The translations under genes were made by a program, and so were the position numbers. From contig QZKO01000067.1 of NCBI GenBank assembly GCA_003599505.1, positions 37,114-101,113 of the forward strand: a stretch of 64,000 nucleotides of DNA. Direction: 5' to 3'. Below the pieces are notes generated by a model. That model saw nothing but the letters and a program-made list of their open reading frames with translations. It ran no database searches and was not told the DNA's origin. The stretch's first letter is position 1, and each line of letters begins with the position of its first letter. Below are positions 2,284 to 61,581 of this stretch, in pieces. This stretch comes from Nitrospiraceae bacterium (GTDB taxonomy: Bacteria > Nitrospirota > Thermodesulfovibrionia > UBA6902).

Positions 2284-3205
2284 TAAGCAGCGTCTCGAGC
2301 ACAAGCTCCGGTCTTCCGGACTTCTTCATTCCCAGGTCCGCTTCATGCAGGTTCCGGAAAATACGGAAGAAATCCTCTTCCTTAAATGAGGGCAGGTATT
2401 TTCCCAATGCTTTGAATGTCGACTCCTTCATTTTCGCGGGCCGTTTGCCCTTATTTAACCACAGCGAATAGAACTGTTTGTAATGCCAGTTCAAGGTCCC
2501 GAGTATGACGGGAAGCTCATAACTGCCGCTGTTTGAAATTAAATTCTTCAGAATCCTGAAGGCCCTGGAGCTCTTTCCCGCTGTAAGCGAGTCTACAAGC
2601 TCAAAGGTCGTAAACTCCCTCATCATGCTGACCGAGGAAACGACATCCCTGCCGCTGACAGCGCCGCGCCCCAGAGACGTCAGTTTCTCAAGTTCCATCA
2701 TCAGCAGCCCGGGCTCATATCCTAAATACTCTATCAATGAATCGACCGCGTCGTTTGTTAAACGTATCCCCTTTCCGGCCGCAGCCTGTTTCAGCCATGC
2801 CGGTATGTCGCTGTCCCTTATGTTGAGAGAATAAACTTTCCGCAGGTCCATGGAGGACGCGGGGGCTTTTTGAGAAAGCACCACCATGCAGGTCGTTTCC
2901 GCGGGCCCCTTAAAATATGGGAGCAACGCCTTGACAGCCTGCGCCGGGAACGCGTGAAAATCCTTTACTGCTACCAGCCGTCTTGAAGACATGAACGGGA
3001 GGGTTGAAGCGGCGTTTATAATCTCCTGCGGCGTCGCGGAGGGATAAAAAACGTCATAATTGAATTCCACCGGGGCCCCGGCAATGACGGTCCCGATAAT
3101 CTTCGAAAGCGCGTTTTCAAGAAAACAGCCTTCTTCGCTCCAGAGAAAATACAGGGGGGCCGGAAGACCGTTCTTGATTTCCCCGAGAAGCGCCTTATTT
3201 AGCAT
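2252..3205 (-). CDS. holA: DNA polymerase III delta subunit
   Basis: TLPFMSSRRLV, LMMELEKL motifs; position after leuS-lptE; likely start ATG 3205 rather than 3292. Confidence 0.85.
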   Translation of the reverse strand: MLNKALLGEIKNGLPAPLYFLWSEEGCFLENALSKIIGTVIAGAPVEFNYDVFYPSATPQEIINAASTLPFMSSRRLVAVKDFHAFPAQAVKALLPYFKGPAETTCMVVLSQKAPASSMDLRKVYSLNIRDSDIPAWLKQAAAGKGIRLTNDAVDSLIEYLGYEPGLLMMELEKLTSLGRGAVSGRDVVSSVSMMREFTTFELVDSLTAGKSSRAFRILKNLISNSGSYELPVILGTLNWHYKQFYSLWLNKGKRPAKMKESTFKALGKYLPSFKEEDFFRIFRNLHEADLGMKKSGRPELVLETLLIKLLQKKSWN

Positions 3206-3749
3206 AGGCAAGTATGGTCCGGGCCACCAGCTCTTTCGCGATCTCGCTGCACGCCTTTTCCACGGCCCTTTCCTTGAGAGCGGCGCTTTCACTCACGGTC
3301 CCGGTGGATTGAAAAGTTATCTTTATGGGAGAAGCCATAGACCTGAACTCGGTGACCTTCTCCCTGTCCGTCAGCTTAATGTCGACCTGCAAAATAACAG
3401 ACTGCTCCTTTATCCTGTCATCAACCGCTCCTATGGCCCCAAGCTGGAAAGTGGTGACCGTGGCCTCGAGCTCGACGTCTCCTCCCGCTGCCCTGACCTC
3501 GATTCCCTGATTGATAAACTCTTCTGAAAGGGCGTTGTGCATCTTCTCTTCAAGCCGGGGCTCATAAGTTTTATTCTGGACCTGCTTAATCGTAATGGAA
3601 TGAAACGACAGGGGTATCGAGCCGATCATGTGATAACCGCAGGAGGAGGCAATAAGCAGTAAGCAGTAAGCGGTAAGCAGCAGTAGGGGCAATTCATGAA
3701 TTGCCCTTACGCCTTTTCCGGATTCCTGCTTTTGGACCTTGAATTTCAT
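3195..3749 (-). CDS. lptE: LPS assembly lipoprotein LptE
   Basis: Lipobox SSCGY, leuS-lptE-holA synteny; N-terminus partly encoded by REP and heptamer repeats. Confidence 0.8.
3653..3710 (+). repeat. (TAAGCAG)4 heptamer run plus REP-like palindrome inside lptE
   Basis: TAAGCAG TAAGCAG TAAGCGG TAAGCAG (3653-3680); GTAGGGGCAATTCATGAATTGCCCTTAC (3683-3710), 28-bp palindrome with one mismatch. Confidence 0.9.
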
Positions 3750-6226
3750 ATTACTATATTCACAAGCCTGCCTTGAACAACCACGACCTTCTTCAACGTC
3801 TTGCCGTCAAGGTGTTCCCTCACCTTTGGTTCGGAAAAGGCCTTTTCTTTTACCGCTTCGTCGTCAAGCCCGGCAGGGATCATGACCCTTCCTCTGACCT
3901 TCCCGTTTATCTGGACCACAAGCTCGGTTTCTTCTTCTTTCGCGATCTCCTCATCCCATGAAGGCCAGGGCTGTTTCAGCAGGCCTTCTTTCCCCCCGGT
4001 CTGCCGCCAGAGCTCTTCCGCGACATGCGGGGCAAAAGGAGAAAGGAGAACAATCGCCTGTCTCATACTCAGGCCCAGGACTTCGAAATCCTTTTCCCCT
4101 GACGGATTAAACGACGATATCTCATTGATCAGTTCCATCAGCGCCGCAATAGCGGTATTGAAATGGTAGTCCTTTTCAATGCTGCCGGTGACTTTTTTTA
4201 TCGTCTGGTGCGTCTTCCTTAAAAGGCTGATGGCTGAAGGCTGAAGGCTGAAAATTTCCTCAATTTTGAATTTTGAATCTTGAATTTTGAATTTGTTGTT
4301 ATACACAAGTCCCCATACCCTGTTCAAAAACCTGTACGCGCCTTCCACCCCCTGGTCCGACCATTCGAGGTCCCTCTCCGGGGGCGCGGCGAACATGCAG
4401 AATACCCTCACCGTGTCAGTGCCGTATTTATTAATGAGGAAATCCGGGTCCACTACATTGCCCTTTGACTTGGACATCTTGGCGCCGTCCTTGATTACCA
4501 TCCCCTGTGTGAGCAGGCTTGTGAAGGGTTCATCTGTTTCTATGAGACCGATGTCCCTGATGACTTTCGTAAAAAAGCGTGAGTACAGCAGATGGAGAAC
4601 GGCATGCTCAATCCCCCCGATATACTGGTCGACCGGCATCCAGTATCGCAGGGGCGATTCATGAATCGCCCCTGCTGACCGCTGACCGCTGATCGCTGAA
4701 TTCAAATCAACCTTTGCGTTCCCGCCGAGACAATAAGCTATGAAATACCATGAAGAGTCCACAAAGGTATCCATGGTGTCTGTTTCCCTTCTCGCGTCTT
4801 TTCCGCAGCGGGGACATTTTGTATCAACAAAACTTTTTACTTCAAGCAATGGAGAAACTCCCTTGCCCGTGAAAACGACATCCTGGGGCAGTATGACCGG
4901 AAGCTCGTTTTCCGGGACCGGCATGATGCCGCAGGAATCACAATAGACTACCGGTATCGGGGTCCCCCAGTATCTCTGGCGCGAGATGCCCCAGTCTCTC
5001 AGCTTGTAATTGACAACCCTCTTGCCCAACTCTTTTTGTTCAATGTAATCTGCGATCTTTTCTCTGGCTTCTCTGGAAGGCAGACCGGAGAATTGAGATG
5101 AATCAACAAGGATGCCGTCTTCTTCAAAGGCCCCCTCCCTTGACCCCTCGCCCCTTGCCCCTTGCCACTTTTCTATAACTACCTTCACAGGCAAATCATA
5201 TTTCTTCGCAAATTCAAAATCCCTCTGGTCATGCGCTGGCACGGCCATGACCGCGCCTGTTCCATATTCCATGAGGACAAAATTTGCAACCCATATGGGG
5301 ATATGGTCCCCGGTCAGGGGATTTTCAGCGTAATGACCGGTAAACACCCCTTCCTTTTGCTCCGGGTCTTCAGAAAGAGATGCTATCTCCCTTCTTGTAT
5401 TCTCATCCTTCACCAGTCCTTCAACAAGAGGATGCATCTTCGCCACGCTCATAAACGTCGCTCCATAGAGCGTATCCTGTCTTGTGGTAAAAATCCTTAC
5501 AGTCCTGTCAGTGCCGACGATTTTAAAATCAACTTCCACTCCTTCGCTGCGCCCTATCCAGTTCCGCTGCATGGTGACGACCTTTTCCGGCCAGCCGCCC
5601 AGTTTATCAGCGTCTCTCAGGAGCTCTTCAGCATAGCCGGTGATTTTAAAGAACCACTGTTCAAGCTCCTTCTGAATGACTGTGTTGTCGCAGCGCCAGC
5701 ACTTTTCGTCTATAACCTGCTCATTGGCAAGGACGGTTTCACAGGAAGGACACCAGTTGACAAAAGAGGCCTTCTTATAAGCGAGACCGCGTTCAAGCAT
5801 TTTCAGAAAGAACCACTGGTTCCACCTGTAATATTCAGGTTTGCATGTCGTTACTTCCCGCGCCCAGTCATAGCTCAAGCCCATCTTTTTCAACTGGCCC
5901 TTCATGTAGTCGATATTTTCAAACGTCCATTTCGCGGGAAGCACGCCGTGCTTTATAGCTGCGTTTTCAGCCGGAAGCCCGAAAGCGTCCCAACCCATCG
6001 GATGCAATACATTGAAGCCGCGCATCTTCTTGTATCTGGCAATGACATCTCCGATAACATAGTTCCGCACATGCCCCATATGTATCCTGCCGGAAGGATA
6101 AGGGAACATCTCGAGGCAGTAGAATTTCGGCAGACTGTGGTCTTCCCTTACAGAAAACAGTCCCTCTTTTTCCCAGTGCTCCTGCCACTTCTTTTCTATC
6201 TCTTTCGGATTATATTTCTCTTCCAA
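3746..6226 (-). CDS. leuS: Leucine--tRNA ligase
   Basis: HMGH and KMSKS motifs, CP1 editing domain; TTG start at 6226 preceded by GGAGG. Confidence 0.98.
4225..4294 (+). repeat. Two heptamer runs inside leuS: (GGCTGAA)4 and (TTTTGAA)4
   Basis: 4225-4252 and 4264-4294; encode [25 protein letters not shown]. Confidence 0.9.
4648..4701 (+). repeat. REP-like palindrome plus (GCTGACC)4 heptamer run inside leuS
   Basis: GCAGGGGCGATTCATGAATCGCCCCTGC perfect 28-bp palindrome (4648-4675), then GCTGACC GCTGACC GCTGATC GCTGAAT. Confidence 0.92.
5137..5166 (+). repeat. (CCCCTTG)4 heptamer run inside leuS
   Basis: CCCTTGA CCCCTCG CCCCTTG CCCCTTG; encodes [10 protein letters not shown]. Confidence 0.85.
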
Positions 6227-6292
6227 ACACTGCCTCCTGCATCTCCCCATTCATTCAGATTGGTTTGTATTTTACCATACGGTATTTTTTTC

Positions 6293-11100: not shown

Positions 11101-11129
11101 GTAGGGGCGACCCGCCGGGTCGCCCCTAC
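11101..11129 (+). repeat. REP-like palindrome with GTAG foot
   Basis: GTAGGGGCGACCC-GCC-GGGTCGCCCCTAC, perfect 13-bp arms. Confidence 0.9.
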
Positions 11130-13375: not shown

Positions 13376-14235
13376 AAACAGGGGCCAGGGGCCAGGGGCA
13401 AGAAGCCAGGGACGGAAAAGGCGTTCCCCCCCTCCTTGCTGTCATTGCCGGAATGGGGAAGCTTCCGGCTGCCCTGGCAACGGAGGCAAAAAAAATGGGT
13501 TACAGGGTCACGGGGATCGCGCTGCAGCCTCCAGCCGACGAATCGCTCAGCGCCTGCGTGGATGACTTCCACAAAATCAGCATCGGCCGTTTCGGCGGCC
13601 TGATAAGCCTCCTCAGGAAATTATCCGTCAGGGACGCGGTAATGGCCGGAAAGGTCCCGAAGGGACTTCTTTACAGGCACAGAATAGTTCCTGACATTAA
13701 GGCCGTCAGGCTGCTTTTTTCTTTAAGGGACCGTTCGGATGATACTATAATGAACGCGGTAGTAGAAGAGCTTGAGAAGCACGGCATCAAGATCCACAAA
13801 ACCACCGAATTCACCGGTAACCTGCTTGCGCCGGAGGGAGTAGTAACGCACAAAAAGCCTTCAAGAGATGAATTGAAAGACATCGAATTCGGCTGGAGGA
13901 TCGCCAAAGAAATGGGGCGCCTGGACATAGGGCAGACCGTCGTTATAAAGGACATGGCTGTAATGGCGGTTGAAGCTATTGAGGGGACGGATGAAGCGAT
14001 TAAAAGAGGCGGCGGCCTTGCCGGCAAAGACGCGGTGGTTGTAAAAGTAAGCAAGCCGGATCAGGACATGCGTTTTGACGTGCCTGTTGTCGGAACCGAT
14101 ACGCTTCACTCCATGAAAGGCGCCGGGGCAAAGGCGCTGGCTGTGGAAGCGGGAAAGTGCATCATTGTCGACAAAGAAATGTTTATTAAAGAAGCGGACA
14201 GAATGGGAATCGTTGTTGTCGGGGTGAAAAAATGA
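13366..14235 (+). CDS. lpxI: UDP-2,3-diacylglucosamine pyrophosphatase LpxI (DUF1009)
   Basis: DIGQTVV, AVEAIEGTD, QDMRFDVP motifs; follows lpxA. Confidence 0.9.
   Translation: MQVKTGARGQGQEARDGKGVPPLLAVIAGMGKLPAALATEAKKMGYRVTGIALQPPADESLSACVDDFHKISIGRFGGLISLLRKLSVRDAVMAGKVPKGLLYRHRIVPDIKAVRLLFSLRDRSDDTIMNAVVEELEKHGIKIHKTTEFTGNLLAPEGVVTHKKPSRDELKDIEFGWRIAKEMGRLDIGQTVVIKDMAVMAVEAIEGTDEAIKRGGGLAGKDAVVVKVSKPDQDMRFDVPVVGTDTLHSMKGAGAKALAVEAGKCIIVDKEMFIKEADRMGIVVVGVKK
13381..13411 (+). repeat. (GGGGCCA)4 heptamer run in the lpxI 5' end
   Basis: GGGGCCA GGGGCCA GGGGCAA GAAGCCA GGG. Confidence 0.8.
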
Positions 14236-30253: not shown

Positions 30254-30258
30254 GTGTG

Positions 30259-31242
30259 GGGTCAGGCTTGCTTTCATGCATTTAATTTCCTTATTACCCT
30301 TTGAACTATTTTCCCTTCTTCCCTGTTCTCAGAGGTCTTGCTCCATCGCGATAATACCGACAAATCCCTTTTTAATTCACTCTGCAATTCCACCAGCCGA
30401 TATCCCGATTCCCTGCATGCCCCGGCAAATATGACCCTTGCCGACTTTACTGCGTTCCCCCTTCCGCGTGACTTTATTTCTTCTTGTGAAACGCCGGTTT
30501 CCTCTAAGACTGCTGCAAATACCTCTTTAAGGGGCGGCTTCCTGACCCGTTTGTCCAGATTATCCACTTCCTCCGCTACTTTCTCTATAAACTTTTCATC
30601 TCCAATAATCTGCTGACCCACGGCCTTGTATACTGACCCGTCACTTTTTATCCCGATTGCAACATCCACAAAATCCCTGTACAGCTTCCGCGCCTCCGAC
30701 GGCCTCTCTGAAAACATTCGCAATACCTTGTCCGTTTCAACAACCCCTTTATTACCGTCCAGGTATTCACGGTGGCTGCTCCATTTGTACTCCTGCGGCT
30801 TCTCTACCAGCTTCGCCCGCACCGGATTTAAGTGTATGTATCGGACCAGGCTTAACAGATATATGTCCCTGTCACAAAGATATGCCTTGTATCTCCCCTG
30901 AAAAAGATGCCCTGTTTTCTTATATCTTTGATTAAAGTACCGCGTATACGTAAAGCTGATTACCTGCATTATCCTCGATATCGGCGTCTTCGGTGTCTCC
31001 ACCAACAAATGCACGTGATTTGTCATCAGCGTATAGGCATATATTATAAACCCATGCCGCCTCCTGTATCTTTCTACAAGTTCAAGATACTTGAATCTGT
31101 CTTTTTTATCTTTAAATATCGCCTGTCGCTGATTGCCACGCACTATTACGTGATAAAATGCTCCGGGATACTCTATTCGCGGTGGTCTCGCCATTGTGAA
31201 CTAATTTTAGCTGTCTCATCTGCACGTTTGCAAGCCTGACCC
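30259..31242 (-). mobile_element. RAYT-like element with terminal inverted repeats
   Basis: GGGTCAGGCTTGC (30259-30271) / GCAAGCCTGACCC (31230-31242), extendable to about 22 bp with RTGCA; encloses only the transposase. Confidence 0.8.
30274..31194 (-). CDS. Y1 HUH transposase (REP-associated/IS200-like) with C-terminal HTH extension
   Basis: YHVIVRGN, MTNHVHLL (HUH), GHLFQGRY, RYIHLNPVRA, YKWSS. Confidence 0.93.
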   Translation of the reverse strand: MARPPRIEYPGAFYHVIVRGNQRQAIFKDKKDRFKYLELVERYRRRHGFIIYAYTLMTNHVHLLVETPKTPISRIMQVISFTYTRYFNQRYKKTGHLFQGRYKAYLCDRDIYLLSLVRYIHLNPVRAKLVEKPQEYKWSSHREYLDGNKGVVETDKVLRMFSERPSEARKLYRDFVDVAIGIKSDGSVYKAVGQQIIGDEKFIEKVAEEVDNLDKRVRKPPLKEVFAAVLEETGVSQEEIKSRGRGNAVKSARVIFAGACRESGYRLVELQSELKRDLSVLSRWSKTSENREEGKIVQRVIRKLNA

Positions 31243-31273
31243 TATACGCTCTATACGCTCTGACCCTATACGC
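31237..31273 (+). repeat. Short tandem repeats overlapping the right TIR
   Basis: TGACCCTATACGC at 31237-31249 and 31261-31273 with CTATACGCTC between. Confidence 0.85.
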
Positions 31274-35712: not shown

Positions 35713-35801
35713 CCCCCCCCTTTTGGCAAAGGGGGGCGAGGAGGGATTTTTTCAATACATTCTATAAAATCTCCCCTAACCCCTCTTTTTCAAAGAGGGG
35801 G
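35713..35801. repeat. Inverted dyad of CCCCCCTTT-N-AAAGGGGGG hairpins (REP/MITE-like)
   Basis: CCCCCCCCTTTTGGCAAAGGGGGG..GGGATTT / AAATCTCCCCTAACCCCTCTTTTTCAAAGAGGGGG. Confidence 0.75.
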
Positions 35802-36400: not shown

Positions 36401-36437
36401 TCTCCTTTAACTCCAAACTCTAAACTTGCAACTTTCC

Positions 36438-36462
36438 GGGCGGGTTTAAAACCCGCCCCTAC
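36438..36462 (-). repeat. REP-like palindrome with GTAG foot
   Basis: Minus strand GTAGGGGCGGGTTTTAAACCCGCCC. Confidence 0.8.
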
Positions 36463-44400: not shown

Positions 44401-45059
44401 TAAACAACCCCGTCATGGATTGTTATAACACGCTTTGCTTCCCCGGCGATCTCCGTTTCATGGGTAACAAGGATAATGGTAATGCCCTCTTCGTTCAGTT
44501 TCCTGACGATATCCATAATCTCCATGCCTGAACGGCTGTCGAGGTTCCCTGTCGGCTCATCGGCGAGCAGCACCTTCGGCTGCATTACGAGCGCGCGCGC
44601 GATAGCAACCCTCTGCTGCTCTCCGCCGCTGAGCTCCGCAGGCGTATGGTCCTTCCTGCCGGCAATGCCGACCTTTTCGAGCATTTCCACTGCCAGCGCC
44701 TCGCGTTTATCTTTAGGGATATTAGCGTAAAGCATTGGGATTTCAACGTTTTTACATGCGCGATACCTCGGCAGGAGATTGAAGGTCTGAAAAACAAAAC
44801 CGAATCTCCCGTTTCTCAGTCCCGCTAATTCATCGTCGGATTTGGCCTTGATATCAGAGCCTTCAAAAAGATAGGTCCCCGAGGTCTGTCTGTCAAGACA
44901 TCCGATTATGTTCAGGAGGGTAGATTTTCCCGACCCGGAACGGCCCATTATCGCTACAAAATCCCCTGCCCCTACATCAAGGTTAACGCCCTTCAACACC
45001 TCAAGGGAAATCTTCCCTGACAGGTAACTCTTCCTGATATCTTTAAGGCTGATTAACAA
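44391..45059 (-). CDS. ABC transporter ATP-binding protein (MacB/LolD-like)
   Basis: GRSGSGKST, LSGGEQQR, LLADEPTGNLD. Confidence 0.95.
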   Translation of the reverse strand: MLISLKDIRKSYLSGKISLEVLKGVNLDVGAGDFVAIMGRSGSGKSTLLNIIGCLDRQTSGTYLFEGSDIKAKSDDELAGLRNGRFGFVFQTFNLLPRYRACKNVEIPMLYANIPKDKREALAVEMLEKVGIAGRKDHTPAELSGGEQQRVAIARALVMQPKVLLADEPTGNLDSRSGMEIMDIVRKLNEEGITIILVTHETEIAGEAKRVITIHDGVVYNE

Positions 45060-60391: not shown

Positions 60392-61581
60392 TCGTAAGAG
60401 TTGATAAATGCACCGGCTGTGAAACGTGCCTGGCCTCCTGCCCCTTTGACGCCATCGTGATTAAAGAAGGTAAGGCTTTTATCAATGAATATTGCAATTA
60501 CTGCAAGACCTGCGTCTCGGTATGTCCCGAAGGGGCGATAGTAGAGACAGAAGACAGCGGTCAGCAGTCAGCGGTCAGCGGTCAGCTTAAAGATTACAAA
60601 GATGTGCTGATTTTCGCTGAGCAGAGAGAAGGGAAGGCGGCCCCTGTCGCGTTTGAGCTTCTCGGCGCCGGCAGGAGGCTTGCGGACGAGCTCGGCGCGA
60701 AATTACTCGCCGTGCTTCCGGGCGCAGGCGAATCCGAAGCAAAAGAGCTGATCAGGTGGGGCGCCGACAGGGTATTCGTGTGCGATGACTCCCGTCTCCT
60801 GAAATTCAACGATGACGCATATGCTGATATTCTCACAAAGGTAATCAGCGAACAAAAGCCTTCTATCGCGCTTGCCGGAGCAACACCCGTTGGAAGGTCG
60901 TTTATCCCGCGCGTGGCCGCAAGGTTAAGGACCGGTCTGACGGCGGACTGCACATCGCTTGAAATAGACAGGGACTCGGGCAATCTCCTCCAGATACGCC
61001 CGGCGTTCGGCGGCAATATTATGGCAACGATCCTGTGTCCAGATTACAGGCCGCAGATGGCGACAGTAAGACCCCGCGTGATGAAAAGAGGCGTATACGA
61101 TGAAAACAGGGCCGGTGAAATCATAAATATTCAGATGGATAAAATCCCTTCAAGGACGAAGGTCCTGGACACCGTCAGGGAAGTATCGGAGATCAGCGTC
61201 AACCTCCACGAGGCGGAATTTATAGTAGCGGGAGGAAGAGGCGCGGGCGGTGAAAAAGGTTTTAAACTGCTTGAAGAGCTCGCGCAGGCCCTGGGCGGGG
61301 TTGTCGGCGCGTCAAGGGCCGCGGTCGACGAGGGATGGATTTCATACAGCCATCAGGTAGGACAGACCGGCAAGACGGTAAACCCGAAAATATATATCGC
61401 CTGCGGCATTTCAGGGGCCGTCCAGCATCTCGTCGGAATGCAGTCGTCGGATATTATCATCGCCATCAATAAGAACCCCGAAGCCCCTATCTTCAATGTG
61501 GCAACATACGGCATTGTCGGGGACCTGTTCGAGATAGTGCCGATGCTGACAAAAAGGGTTAAGGAAATAAAAGGCGCGTGA
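60382..61581 (+). CDS. etfA: Electron transfer flavoprotein alpha subunit with N-terminal ferredoxin domain
   Basis: Two CxxCxxCxxxCP motifs; GLTADCT, QVGQTGKTV, GISGAVQH. Confidence 0.95.
   Translation: MPVVVRVDKCTGCETCLASCPFDAIVIKEGKAFINEYCNYCKTCVSVCPEGAIVETEDSGQQSAVSGQLKDYKDVLIFAEQREGKAAPVAFELLGAGRRLADELGAKLLAVLPGAGESEAKELIRWGADRVFVCDDSRLLKFNDDAYADILTKVISEQKPSIALAGATPVGRSFIPRVAARLRTGLTADCTSLEIDRDSGNLLQIRPAFGGNIMATILCPDYRPQMATVRPRVMKRGVYDENRAGEIINIQMDKIPSRTKVLDTVREVSEISVNLHEAEFIVAGGRGAGGEKGFKLLEELAQALGGVVGASRAAVDEGWISYSHQVGQTGKTVNPKIYIACGISGAVQHLVGMQSSDIIIAINKNPEAPIFNVATYGIVGDLFEIVPMLTKRVKEIKGA
60555..60586 (+). repeat. (CAGCGGT)4 heptamer run in the etfA interdomain linker
   Basis: CAGCGGT CAGCAGT CAGCGGT CAGCGGT CAGC, encoding SGQQSAVSGQL. 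Confidence 0.88.

Follow-up and report, generated by a model that had tools for sequence, protein, structure and literature searches.

Subclass 2.4 of the TnpAREP enzymes, which corresponds to group 4 of the tyrosine transposases associated with REPs (RAYTs), is linked to double-foot repetitive extragenic palindromes (REPs), and copies of these also occur in frame within tnpAREP genes (PMC6006769, Quentin 2018). GTAG REPs that lie wholly inside open reading frames (ORFs), such as those of DNA repair genes and tRNA synthetases, have been described as well; many are near N-termini, and the authors infer that intragenic REPs are tolerated in loops (PMC3733652, Di Nocera 2013). Here, we analyze a 64-kb stretch of contig QZKO01000067.1 from a Nitrospiraceae bacterium (hereafter, the window), in which two 28-bp palindromes lie in frame in the neighboring essential genes lptE and leuS. 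In-frame GTAG REPs are an already published kind of element, to which this locus adds a new host and new instances. The newer part is that the copies sit in repeat-occupied, fast-changing segments of leuS and lptE in a Nitrospirota clade.

The window elements resemble the REPs of subclass 2.4 (PMC6006769) in having feet of the type 5' GT[AG]G and 3' C[TC]AC, in having at least three G-C pairs at the base of the stem, and in leaving genes unbroken when in frame; as in that subclass, the window REP sequence also flanks enzymes with NHIH, WQ, and YIxNNP motifs and sits in frame after their HUH motif. Unlike the cases described for subclass 2.4, the host is a member of the Thermodesulfovibrionia (Nitrospirota), copies lie beside heptamer arrays, one copy has GCAG/CTGC feet, and no subclass 2.4 enzyme was found in the 64-kb window. 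The intragenic GTAG/CGTC REPs surveyed in Proteobacteria, Cyanobacteria, Chloroflexi, and the PVC group provide a second close parallel, as single REPs are translated in housekeeping genes, including tRNA synthetases, and many of them lie near N-termini; neither an association with heptamers nor same-site turnover among near-identical genomes was reported in that survey (PMC3733652). An earlier note on the window, made from its letters alone, had held that coding REPs are known mainly from Rickettsia. The published intragenic GTAG REPs, tRNA synthetase genes included, and the published in-frame RAYT copies contradict this view (PMC3733652, PMC6006769).

Rickettsia palindromic elements (RPEs) are also palindromic repeats carried in frame by genes that remain functional. 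RPE-1 elements are ~100–150 bp long and are not known outside Rickettsia. RPE-4 and RPE-6 are shorter and have a CGTC tag (PMC3733652). Unlike RPEs, to which they have no sequence similarity and among which they do not belong, the elements described here are 28 bp long, have a GTAG foot, and reside in a Nitrospirota host. Elhai and colleagues are said to have described, in 2008, hairpin-forming repeats of ~21–27 nt nested in cyanobacterial tandem heptamer (STRR) arrays, mainly in non-coding DNA. To our knowledge, a RAYT link was not part of that description. Heptamer arrays are similarly abundant in the present host.

Two in-frame palindromes in a coupled gene pair

Coordinates are positions in the window, where leuS and lptE are both on the minus strand and form an intact, translationally coupled gene pair (3195–6250) in which the lptE ATG overlaps the leuS stop codon (ATGA). 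Both gene products showed full-length homology in an intact frame. LeuS matched E. coli LeuRS (3ZGZ/4AQ7) with E = 2.7e-271 and was 72–74% identical to its nearest counterparts among species-representative genomes, which come from uncultured Nitrospiraceae or Thermodesulfovibrionia; LptE matched its Pfam family (table below).

We found the near-identical palindromes that the earlier note had reported in these two genes at the expected sites and in intact ORFs, and a pattern spanning both of them had no match elsewhere in the window or in any of 100 shuffles of it. The lptE copy is a double-foot REP of the A-T subtype with GTAG...TTAC feet, one base of one arm having decayed, and the leuS copy belongs to the G-C subtype and has GCAG...CTGC feet. 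Five positions differ between the copies. Four of these make up two compensatory pairs that keep the stem (T-A to C-G at 2/27 and A-T to G-C at 9/20), and the fifth yields a G-T pair. RNA folding gave –11.9 kcal/mol (z –3.2) for the lptE copy and –22.3 kcal/mol (z –7.5) for the leuS copy; the window hairpins tested have a GGGGC/GCCCC stem base, with minimum free energies from –11.9 to –27.1 kcal/mol and z values from –3.2 to –7.5. As expected for GTAG REPs, the elements are thus short, stable hairpins with a GC-rich basal stem (at least three G-C pairs) and GTAG/CTAC feet, of which the leuS feet are a paired variant.

Features of the window discussed in the text
Feature	Position	Strand	Remarks
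lptE (184 aa)	3195-3749	-	Pfam LptE PF04390, E = 5.7e-11; lipobox cysteine C37
leuS (leucyl-tRNA synthetase, 834 aa)	3746-6250	-	intact; one REP and four heptamer arrays in frame
lptE palindrome GTAGGGGCAATTCATGAATTGCCCTTAC	3683-3710	-	28 bp; codes V14-L22 (VRAIHELPL) of LptE precursor
leuS palindrome GCAGGGGCGATTCATGAATCGCCCCTGC	4648-4675	-	28-bp perfect palindrome; codes A526-L534 (AGAIHESPL)
lptE heptamer array TTACTGC (coding strand)	3647-3682	-	codes hydrophobic core of LptE signal peptide; touches REP
leuS loop heptamer array GCGGTCA (coding strand)	4672-4699	-	codes S518-S525; touches REP
Two adjacent leuS arrays TTCAGCC and AAATTCA (coding strand)	4223-4252, 4260-4294	-	code residues ~653-675
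leuS array CAAGGGG	5137-5170	-	codes residues ~363-373 (loop 1)
Intergenic double-foot REP GTAGGGGCGACCCGCCGGGTCGCCCCTAC	11101-11129	.	perfect, GTAG...CTAC, other subtype; fold -27.1 kcal/mol; no adjacent heptamer array
Intergenic single-foot REP GGGCGGGTTTAAAACCCGCCCCTAC	36438-36462	.	only ...CTAC foot
Y1 (HUH) transposase, DnaA_C-like tail	30274-31200	-	motifs NHVH / FQ / YIHLNP (TnpAREP subclass 2.1)

The palindrome recurs across metagenomes and beside RAYT genes

Several lines of evidence bear on the identity of the palindromes. First, we scanned public metagenome contigs for GGGGC[A/G]ATTCATGAAT[T/C]GCCCC, which matched at least 120 contigs and ~130 copies (128 in further tests). The core sequence GTAGGGGC[A/G]ATTCATGAAT[T/C]GCCCCTAC was present in at least 120 contigs with GC contents of 35–71%. 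Nearly all listed copies had GTA...TAC feet, and the two variable stem positions co-varied, with mismatches in just three of ~130 copies among the matches listed. The earlier proposal that the palindromes are REP-like and belong to a dispersed family is supported. In the metagenomes, the same sequence also flanks RAYT genes. We considered whether one window copy was derived from the other by compensatory evolution in place and rejected this idea, as the A-T/G-C alternatives at 9/20 and the GTAG/GCAG feet are standing subtypes in the metagenomes.

Second, the REP was found beside ORFs related to small Y1 (HUH) transposases in three metagenome loci (L082, L122, and L200). The transposases of L082 and L200 match Pfam Y1_Tnp and have the NHIH, WQ, and YIxNNP motifs of subclass 2.4; against the NCBIfam RAYT model NF047646, the L200 protein scored 51 bits, under the 80-bit cut-off. 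The L200 gene contains a REP in frame, and L082 has two tandem genes that are REP-flanked, one of which contains a REP in frame. Moreover, among the 120 best-matching homologues of the enzyme from L200 (33–94% identical), 83 had VGAIHE[LS]PL after the HUH motif, although the search that found them picks candidates by shared five-residue words and so favors proteins holding this peptide. Source names of the homologues include Balneola, Bacteroidia, Spirochaetota, KSB1, and Marinimicrobia. The exact 28-mer is a REP that occurs across phyla in association with RAYT genes bearing subclass 2.4 motifs; a single 28-bp element is found across contigs of widely different base composition, with RAYT homologues from several phyla, and inside the coding sequence of its own transposase family. 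In the RAYT gene at L082:8721-9404, we also observed four tandem 18-nt half-REP repeats (ATTTTGAATTGCCCCTAC, read NVGA[VI]Q) beside a full REP; REP ends can therefore sprout tandem repeats.

Third, the reading frame of coding copies is constrained by the element itself. Read from base 1, the canonical element gives V-G-A-I-H-E-L-P-L, whereas frame 2 begins with TAG and frame 3 contains TGA. Because the GTAG foot supplies the TAG and the central TCATGA supplies the TGA, just one of the three frames is stop-free in the canonical GTAG form, and as the palindrome is identical on the two strands, canonical coding copies are read as (V/A)GAIHE(L/S)PL whichever way round they lie. For annotation, this peptide marks REP-derived coding sequence and is not a protein motif. 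The stop-free frame was used by all 15 listed metagenomic copies inside long ORFs (at least 50 codons on each side). Long ORFs held 12% of the listed REP copies versus 56% of random positions in the same contigs, and this depletion means that the REP is mainly extragenic, with coding copies a filtered minority.

Both palindromes are true REPs, of the widespread double-foot GTAG kind, that are translated as part of two essential genes. A full-text literature search for the REP sequence found no paper on it; the matches to GTAGGGGC were unrelated primers. We give almost no credence to an artefact, in which either the assembly went wrong at a repeat that many genomes share or the palindrome arose by chance. 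A 28-mer common to many taxa can confuse metagenome assemblers, and we found no sequencing run covering 3400–5300 for a read check, but both ORFs are intact and in frame with conserved flanks, the independent assemblies L201, L205, L206, and L207 hold the same REP at the same codon position, and no shuffle of the window reproduced the pattern.

Coding copies lie in a surface loop and a signal peptide

The leuS REP directly precedes the conserved YWMPVD segment, and the REP together with the heptamers that adjoin it makes up a surface-loop extension. The earlier note had suggested aligning homologues and mapping the added peptides onto structures, and the alignments showed the added peptides to be lineage-specific. 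In LeuS, the heptamer and REP segment is a 13-residue lineage-specific extension that is absent from E. coli LeuRS and from short-loop relatives; in LptE, the stretch before the lipobox cysteine is nine residues longer than in the related sequence L001. An AlphaFold2 model of LeuS (29 sequences) had a mean predicted local distance difference test (pLDDT) score of 82.8, with scores below 50 at residues 520–530, inside the repeat-coded segment. The only other segments below 50 were the N-terminus and residues 584–598 around KMSKS, and the heptamer-coded loop near residue 365 scored 58. The residues that the lptE REP encodes lie in the n-region, with its positive charge, of a signal peptide of the lipoprotein type. 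From the way in which such signal peptides are processed, the REP-coded LptE residues would be removed with the signal peptide. The REP-coded peptides of both proteins are presumably functionally neutral.

A separate presence/absence split within the clade concerns LeuS sequences from L003, L005, L006, and L017, which have a ~31-residue Cys-rich insert (CxxH...CxxC) after QGMV and before KMSKS; LeuS from the window, L001, L002, and L004 lacks this insert.

We propose the following model. A Y1 RAYT of subclass 2.4 would act on the single-stranded DNA hairpin formed by the REP and presumably moved the copies of this host. In essential genes, a REP would persist only where extra disordered residues are tolerated, and the n-region of the LptE signal peptide, if cleaved as predicted, and the LeuS surface loop would be such segments. 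In the Thermodesulfovibrionia clade, the tolerant segments are already length-variable heptamer arrays, so that REPs end up fused to heptamers, and REP-bearing and heptamer-only alleles would be exchanged between related strains as short recombination patches. We think it likely, taken as a whole, that the window palindromes are copies of a double-foot GTAG REP with a subclass 2.4 RAYT/TnpAREP as cognate enzyme, that they are tolerated in permissive segments, and that they are exchanged by recombination.

REPs come and go at fixed sites in leuS

We surveyed the loop that holds the leuS REP, before YWMPVDQY, in 118 related LeuS sequences. Four states were seen. Short, outgroup-like loops (state S, for example LRYCSPKxxDKPxDxxAV) were present in 26 sequences, and long, heptamer-coded loops (state H; AACTCTN units give NSELSTLNSKLS, for instance, and AGCAATC units give SAISNQQSAIS) in 76. 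A REP of the AIHE[LS]PL type (state R1) was present in five sequences, and a second GTAG REP (GTACGGGCGAGGTTACCTCGCCCCTAC, read GEVTSPLQ; state R2) in 11. On a LeuS tree built on columns filled in at least 90% of rows, at least 15 changes of loop state were needed, and all five R1 rows had heptamer-only rows as nearest neighbors. Given these neighbors and the prevalence of state H, the widespread heptamer loop came first and REPs occupied the site later.

The window leuS has three GCGGTCA units upstream of the REP. Its closest relatives, L203 and L204, are REP-free at this loop and have AACTCTN units, four to five of them. Compared to the four heptamers of L203, three heptamers plus a 28-nt REP are a net gain of 21 nt. 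This arithmetic is no more than suggestive: loss of one heptamer offsets one REP (28 = 1 and 7 = 1 mod 3), but the window allele does not descend directly from that of L203. The REP alleles of L201, L205, L206, and L207 share the flank ATAAATTTTACCACCAAATCAAAC, and that of the window differs; the four are therefore one allele lineage, spread by recombination or sorted among lineages. In close relatives, the G-rich foot-type hairpins that we found at leuS loci were all inside leuS itself (L202, L205, L206, L207, L002, and L003), and all but that of L003 were in loop 1 or loop 2. Loop 1, which is the site of the CAAGGGG array in the window, has an R1 REP in L202 and other GTAGGGGC hairpins in L002, L201, and L205.

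A further comparison was between L201 and L202, which are ~95% identical outside a few patches over leuS-lptE-holA-rpsT and 87% identical over the whole alignment. Inside leuS and shortly beyond its end, the two diverge in four patches with sharp boundaries. In loop 2, L201 has a REP and L202 has AACTCYT heptamers, within a ~90-nt divergent patch. In loop 1, the identical REP GTAGGGGCGATTCATGAATCGCCCCTAC is present in L202, whereas L201 has octamers and another GTAGGGGC element, with the frame broken. An in-frame, C/G-rich hairpin of 48 nt, NPPSPPFDKGGLGGF (L202:3823-3870), is present in L202 in the loop near residue 285. Finally, wholly different heptamer arrays occupy the lptE 5' region (L201:4381-4553 versus L202:5521-5667). 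Beyond these four patches, the arrays of the rpsT-murJ intergenic region (L201:6258-6416 versus L202:7371-7505) are wholly different too. As near-identical sequences differ completely in these arrays, heptamer arrays are replaced much faster than point mutations accumulate. The same REP is present in different leuS loops of the two genomes, and the pair reveals fast turnover of insertions at fixed permissive sites, which heptamer arrays otherwise occupy. L201 and L202 could be used to study REP target choice, in-frame insertion of 28 bp, and the origin and movement of the heptamers. The frame break at L201:2894-3023 is an observation of its own. There, leuS is called as two genes, and a loop-1 composite of GCGGAAGC octamers and GTAGGGGC elements brings a stop codon and a frameshift; either the essential gene is truly disrupted or the long-read assembly is in error here.

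In principle, the hairpins could instead be selected in place, acting in RNA by ribosome pausing or leuS-lptE coupling or in DNA as gyrase or protein sites. The strength of the mRNA hairpins (–22 kcal/mol in leuS), the position of the lptE copy, 39 nt beyond a start codon overlapping the leuS stop, the identity of the REPs of L205 and L206 (0/28 differences versus 17/104 at flank sites), and the retention of the palindrome by paired changes are all in keeping with such a role. However, the closest relatives lack a REP at both sites, the L207 copy is decaying through three changes that break stem pairing, unrelated repeats occupy the same sites in sister genomes, and the palindrome-keeping variants are family subtypes that are seen everywhere and do not require evolution in place. 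We regard selection in place as very improbable.

Five observations count against our preferred model of a mobile, tolerated, and recombining REP. First, the feet of the leuS copy are GCAG...CTGC and not GTAG...CTAC, and this paired variant (GCA...TGC) occurs in just a few of the 128 listed metagenomic copies. Second, R1 and R2 REPs end at the same nucleotide, two bases before TAYTGG. A common end could reflect selection at the edge of YWMP, site-specific integration, or overwriting via shared feet, and the latter two would mean site targeting or REP-to-REP conversion in situ rather than random hits followed by selection. Third, REP divergence among four orthologous alleles was 0.07 per site versus 0.13 in the flanks, or about half the flank rate; this pattern is weak evidence of REP homogenization or constraint at the DNA level, mixed with the clear decay of L207. 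Fourth, the loop-2 change between L201 and L202 is a replacement patch that includes ~30 nt of upstream flank and not a clean insertion, and de novo transposition into leuS or lptE is therefore not directly shown. Fifth, the 64-kb window yielded no subclass 2.4 RAYT, and its sole Y1 gene has subclass 2.1 motifs. A subclass 2.4 gene may be present elsewhere in the host genome.

Heptamer arrays adjoin the REPs

As the earlier note had stated, both coding copies are directly fused to a heptamer run, and the arrays at 3647–3682 and 4672–4699 touch them. The window has ten period-7 arrays, one of period 9, and none of period 5, 6, or 8, making the repeat period specific to 7. The leuS loop array corresponds to the heptamer-coded loop of the 76 related sequences in state H; the two adjacent arrays at 4223–4294 are kept in the closest relative, L203, and other relatives have different heptamers or octamers there. 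In an RNA fold of the single window sequence, the leuS loop heptamers also showed extended pairing with the downstream YWMPVD codons.

The earlier note had taken the fusion as a sign of a composite unit, a REP plus microrepeat run that adds peptide segments; such a unit would be mobile and move together. Both coding copies and one intergenic copy are indeed fused to heptamer-type runs, and a similar REP plus TGAnnGC run is present in the metagenome locus L178. This idea is nevertheless already largely refuted, and we consider it to have very little chance of being correct. No array adjoined 125 of the 128 listed copies elsewhere, and the units beside the three window copies differ (TTACTGC, GCGGTCA, and AACTYYA). 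The TTACTGC array is found at the same place in lptE, without a REP, in L201 and L206, and the heptamer-coded leuS loop is found without a REP in 76 sequences, where the array is the older state and the REP the later occupant. The adjacency of REPs and heptamers in this host reflects shared permissive or hot sites and not a single mobile unit.

A tentative addition to the preferred model, which it would not exclude, is that REPs would preferentially insert in or next to heptamer arrays, with the arrays as specific landing pads or frame adjusters; we hold this to be possible rather than probable. Slipped single-stranded units could be good targets for a Y1 transposase, and slippage by one unit (7 = 1 mod 3) would offset a 28-bp REP, so that copies surviving in frame would be those beside arrays. 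Multiple observations support a link of this kind. Both window coding copies touch arrays versus 0.02 expected (P = 0.0005), and the intergenic hairpin at 36438, where no reading-frame filter applies, also touches one. The heptamer state of the leuS loop is older and widespread, two REP types and other hairpins appear in the loop repeatedly, and the net difference of 21 nt between the window and L203 alleles is that expected from exchange of one unit for one REP. In the metagenome loci, three of the 128 listed copies adjoined a heptamer array versus 0.8 expected (P = 0.04). By contrast, this last result is a weak enrichment outside the present lineage, the REP at 11101 has no adjoining array, the L201-type REP allele keeps no heptamers, L203 is not a direct pre-insertion allele and its unit sequences differ, and permissiveness of the sites alone accounts for adjacency in coding DNA with no need for targeting. 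The testable link between heptamers and REP integration proposed here, together with the identity of the 28-mer as a cross-phylum REP and the repeat-occupied and rapidly exchanged leuS and lptE sites, adds to what has been described for in-frame REPs.

A broader version of the landing-pad idea appears rather unlikely to us. In it, three to four leuS loops and the lptE signal peptide of Thermodesulfovibrionia would be codon-exact open slots, continually rewritten by heptamer and octamer arrays, GTAG REP subtypes, and C/G-rich hairpins; arrays would serve as both landing pad and frame adjuster, and shared feet would allow one REP to overwrite another. If correct, this would be an undescribed, lineage-wide mechanism in which a single-stranded DNA transposase system and microrepeat arrays diversify loops while leaving essential genes unbroken.

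Several features of the arrays were observed independently of the REPs. The unit AGCGGTC/CAGCGGT is arrayed both in leuS (4676–4699, minus strand) and in an unrelated gene 56 kb away (60553–60586, plus strand), and heptamer units are therefore dispersed families themselves. The units CAAGGGG (5137–5170) and CAGGGGC (13379–13399) are similar to the REP 5' arm (GTAGGGGCA / GCAGGGGC), and the CAAGGGG array at leuS loop 1, where relatives have REPs, may represent what is left of a REP arm, or a stutter of one. In L203, the lptE start has GAGAAGT arrays upstream that are reverse-complementary to the CTTCTCA array coding for the signal-peptide core, and from this complementarity the lptE start codon would sit in the loop of a long hairpin. 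The lptE start of L204 likewise has arrays on both sides, without clear complementarity.

Other hairpins and a Y1 transposase gene

Of the intergenic relatives reported earlier at 11101 and 36438, both are present in the window, but the second has only one foot. On the side without a foot, this REP continues directly into an AACTYYA heptamer-like run (36410–36437). In all, the 64-kb window has four members of the REP family, compared to one to five hairpins of any kind in its shuffles. A further candidate, an occurrence of GTAGGGGC at 44968, was rejected as a REP, as it is ordinary coding sequence in an ORF.

The window Y1 gene just reaches the NCBIfam RAYT model, scoring 81 bits where the cut-off is 80. 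A 13-bp inverted repeat, GGGTCAGGCTTGC / GCAAGCCTGACCC (30254–31244), brackets the gene, and CTATACGCT microrepeats follow at 31242–31261. A unit bracketed by terminal inverted repeats is a 'TIRtron' in the terms of Di Nocera (PMC3733652), and no associated REPs are listed for subclass 2.1 (PMC6006769). We dropped this gene as the cognate enzyme; judging from its subclass 2.1 motifs, its DnaA_C tail, and the terminal inverted repeats rather than REPs around it, it is probably not the enzyme that acts on the REPs described here.

A second hairpin family, C/G-rich and of the CCCCCCTTTTGGCAAAGGGGGG type, is intergenic in the window at 35715–35736 and 35780–35800. This family also has a cluster of copies downstream of leuS in L008 and supplies the in-frame leuS insert of L202.

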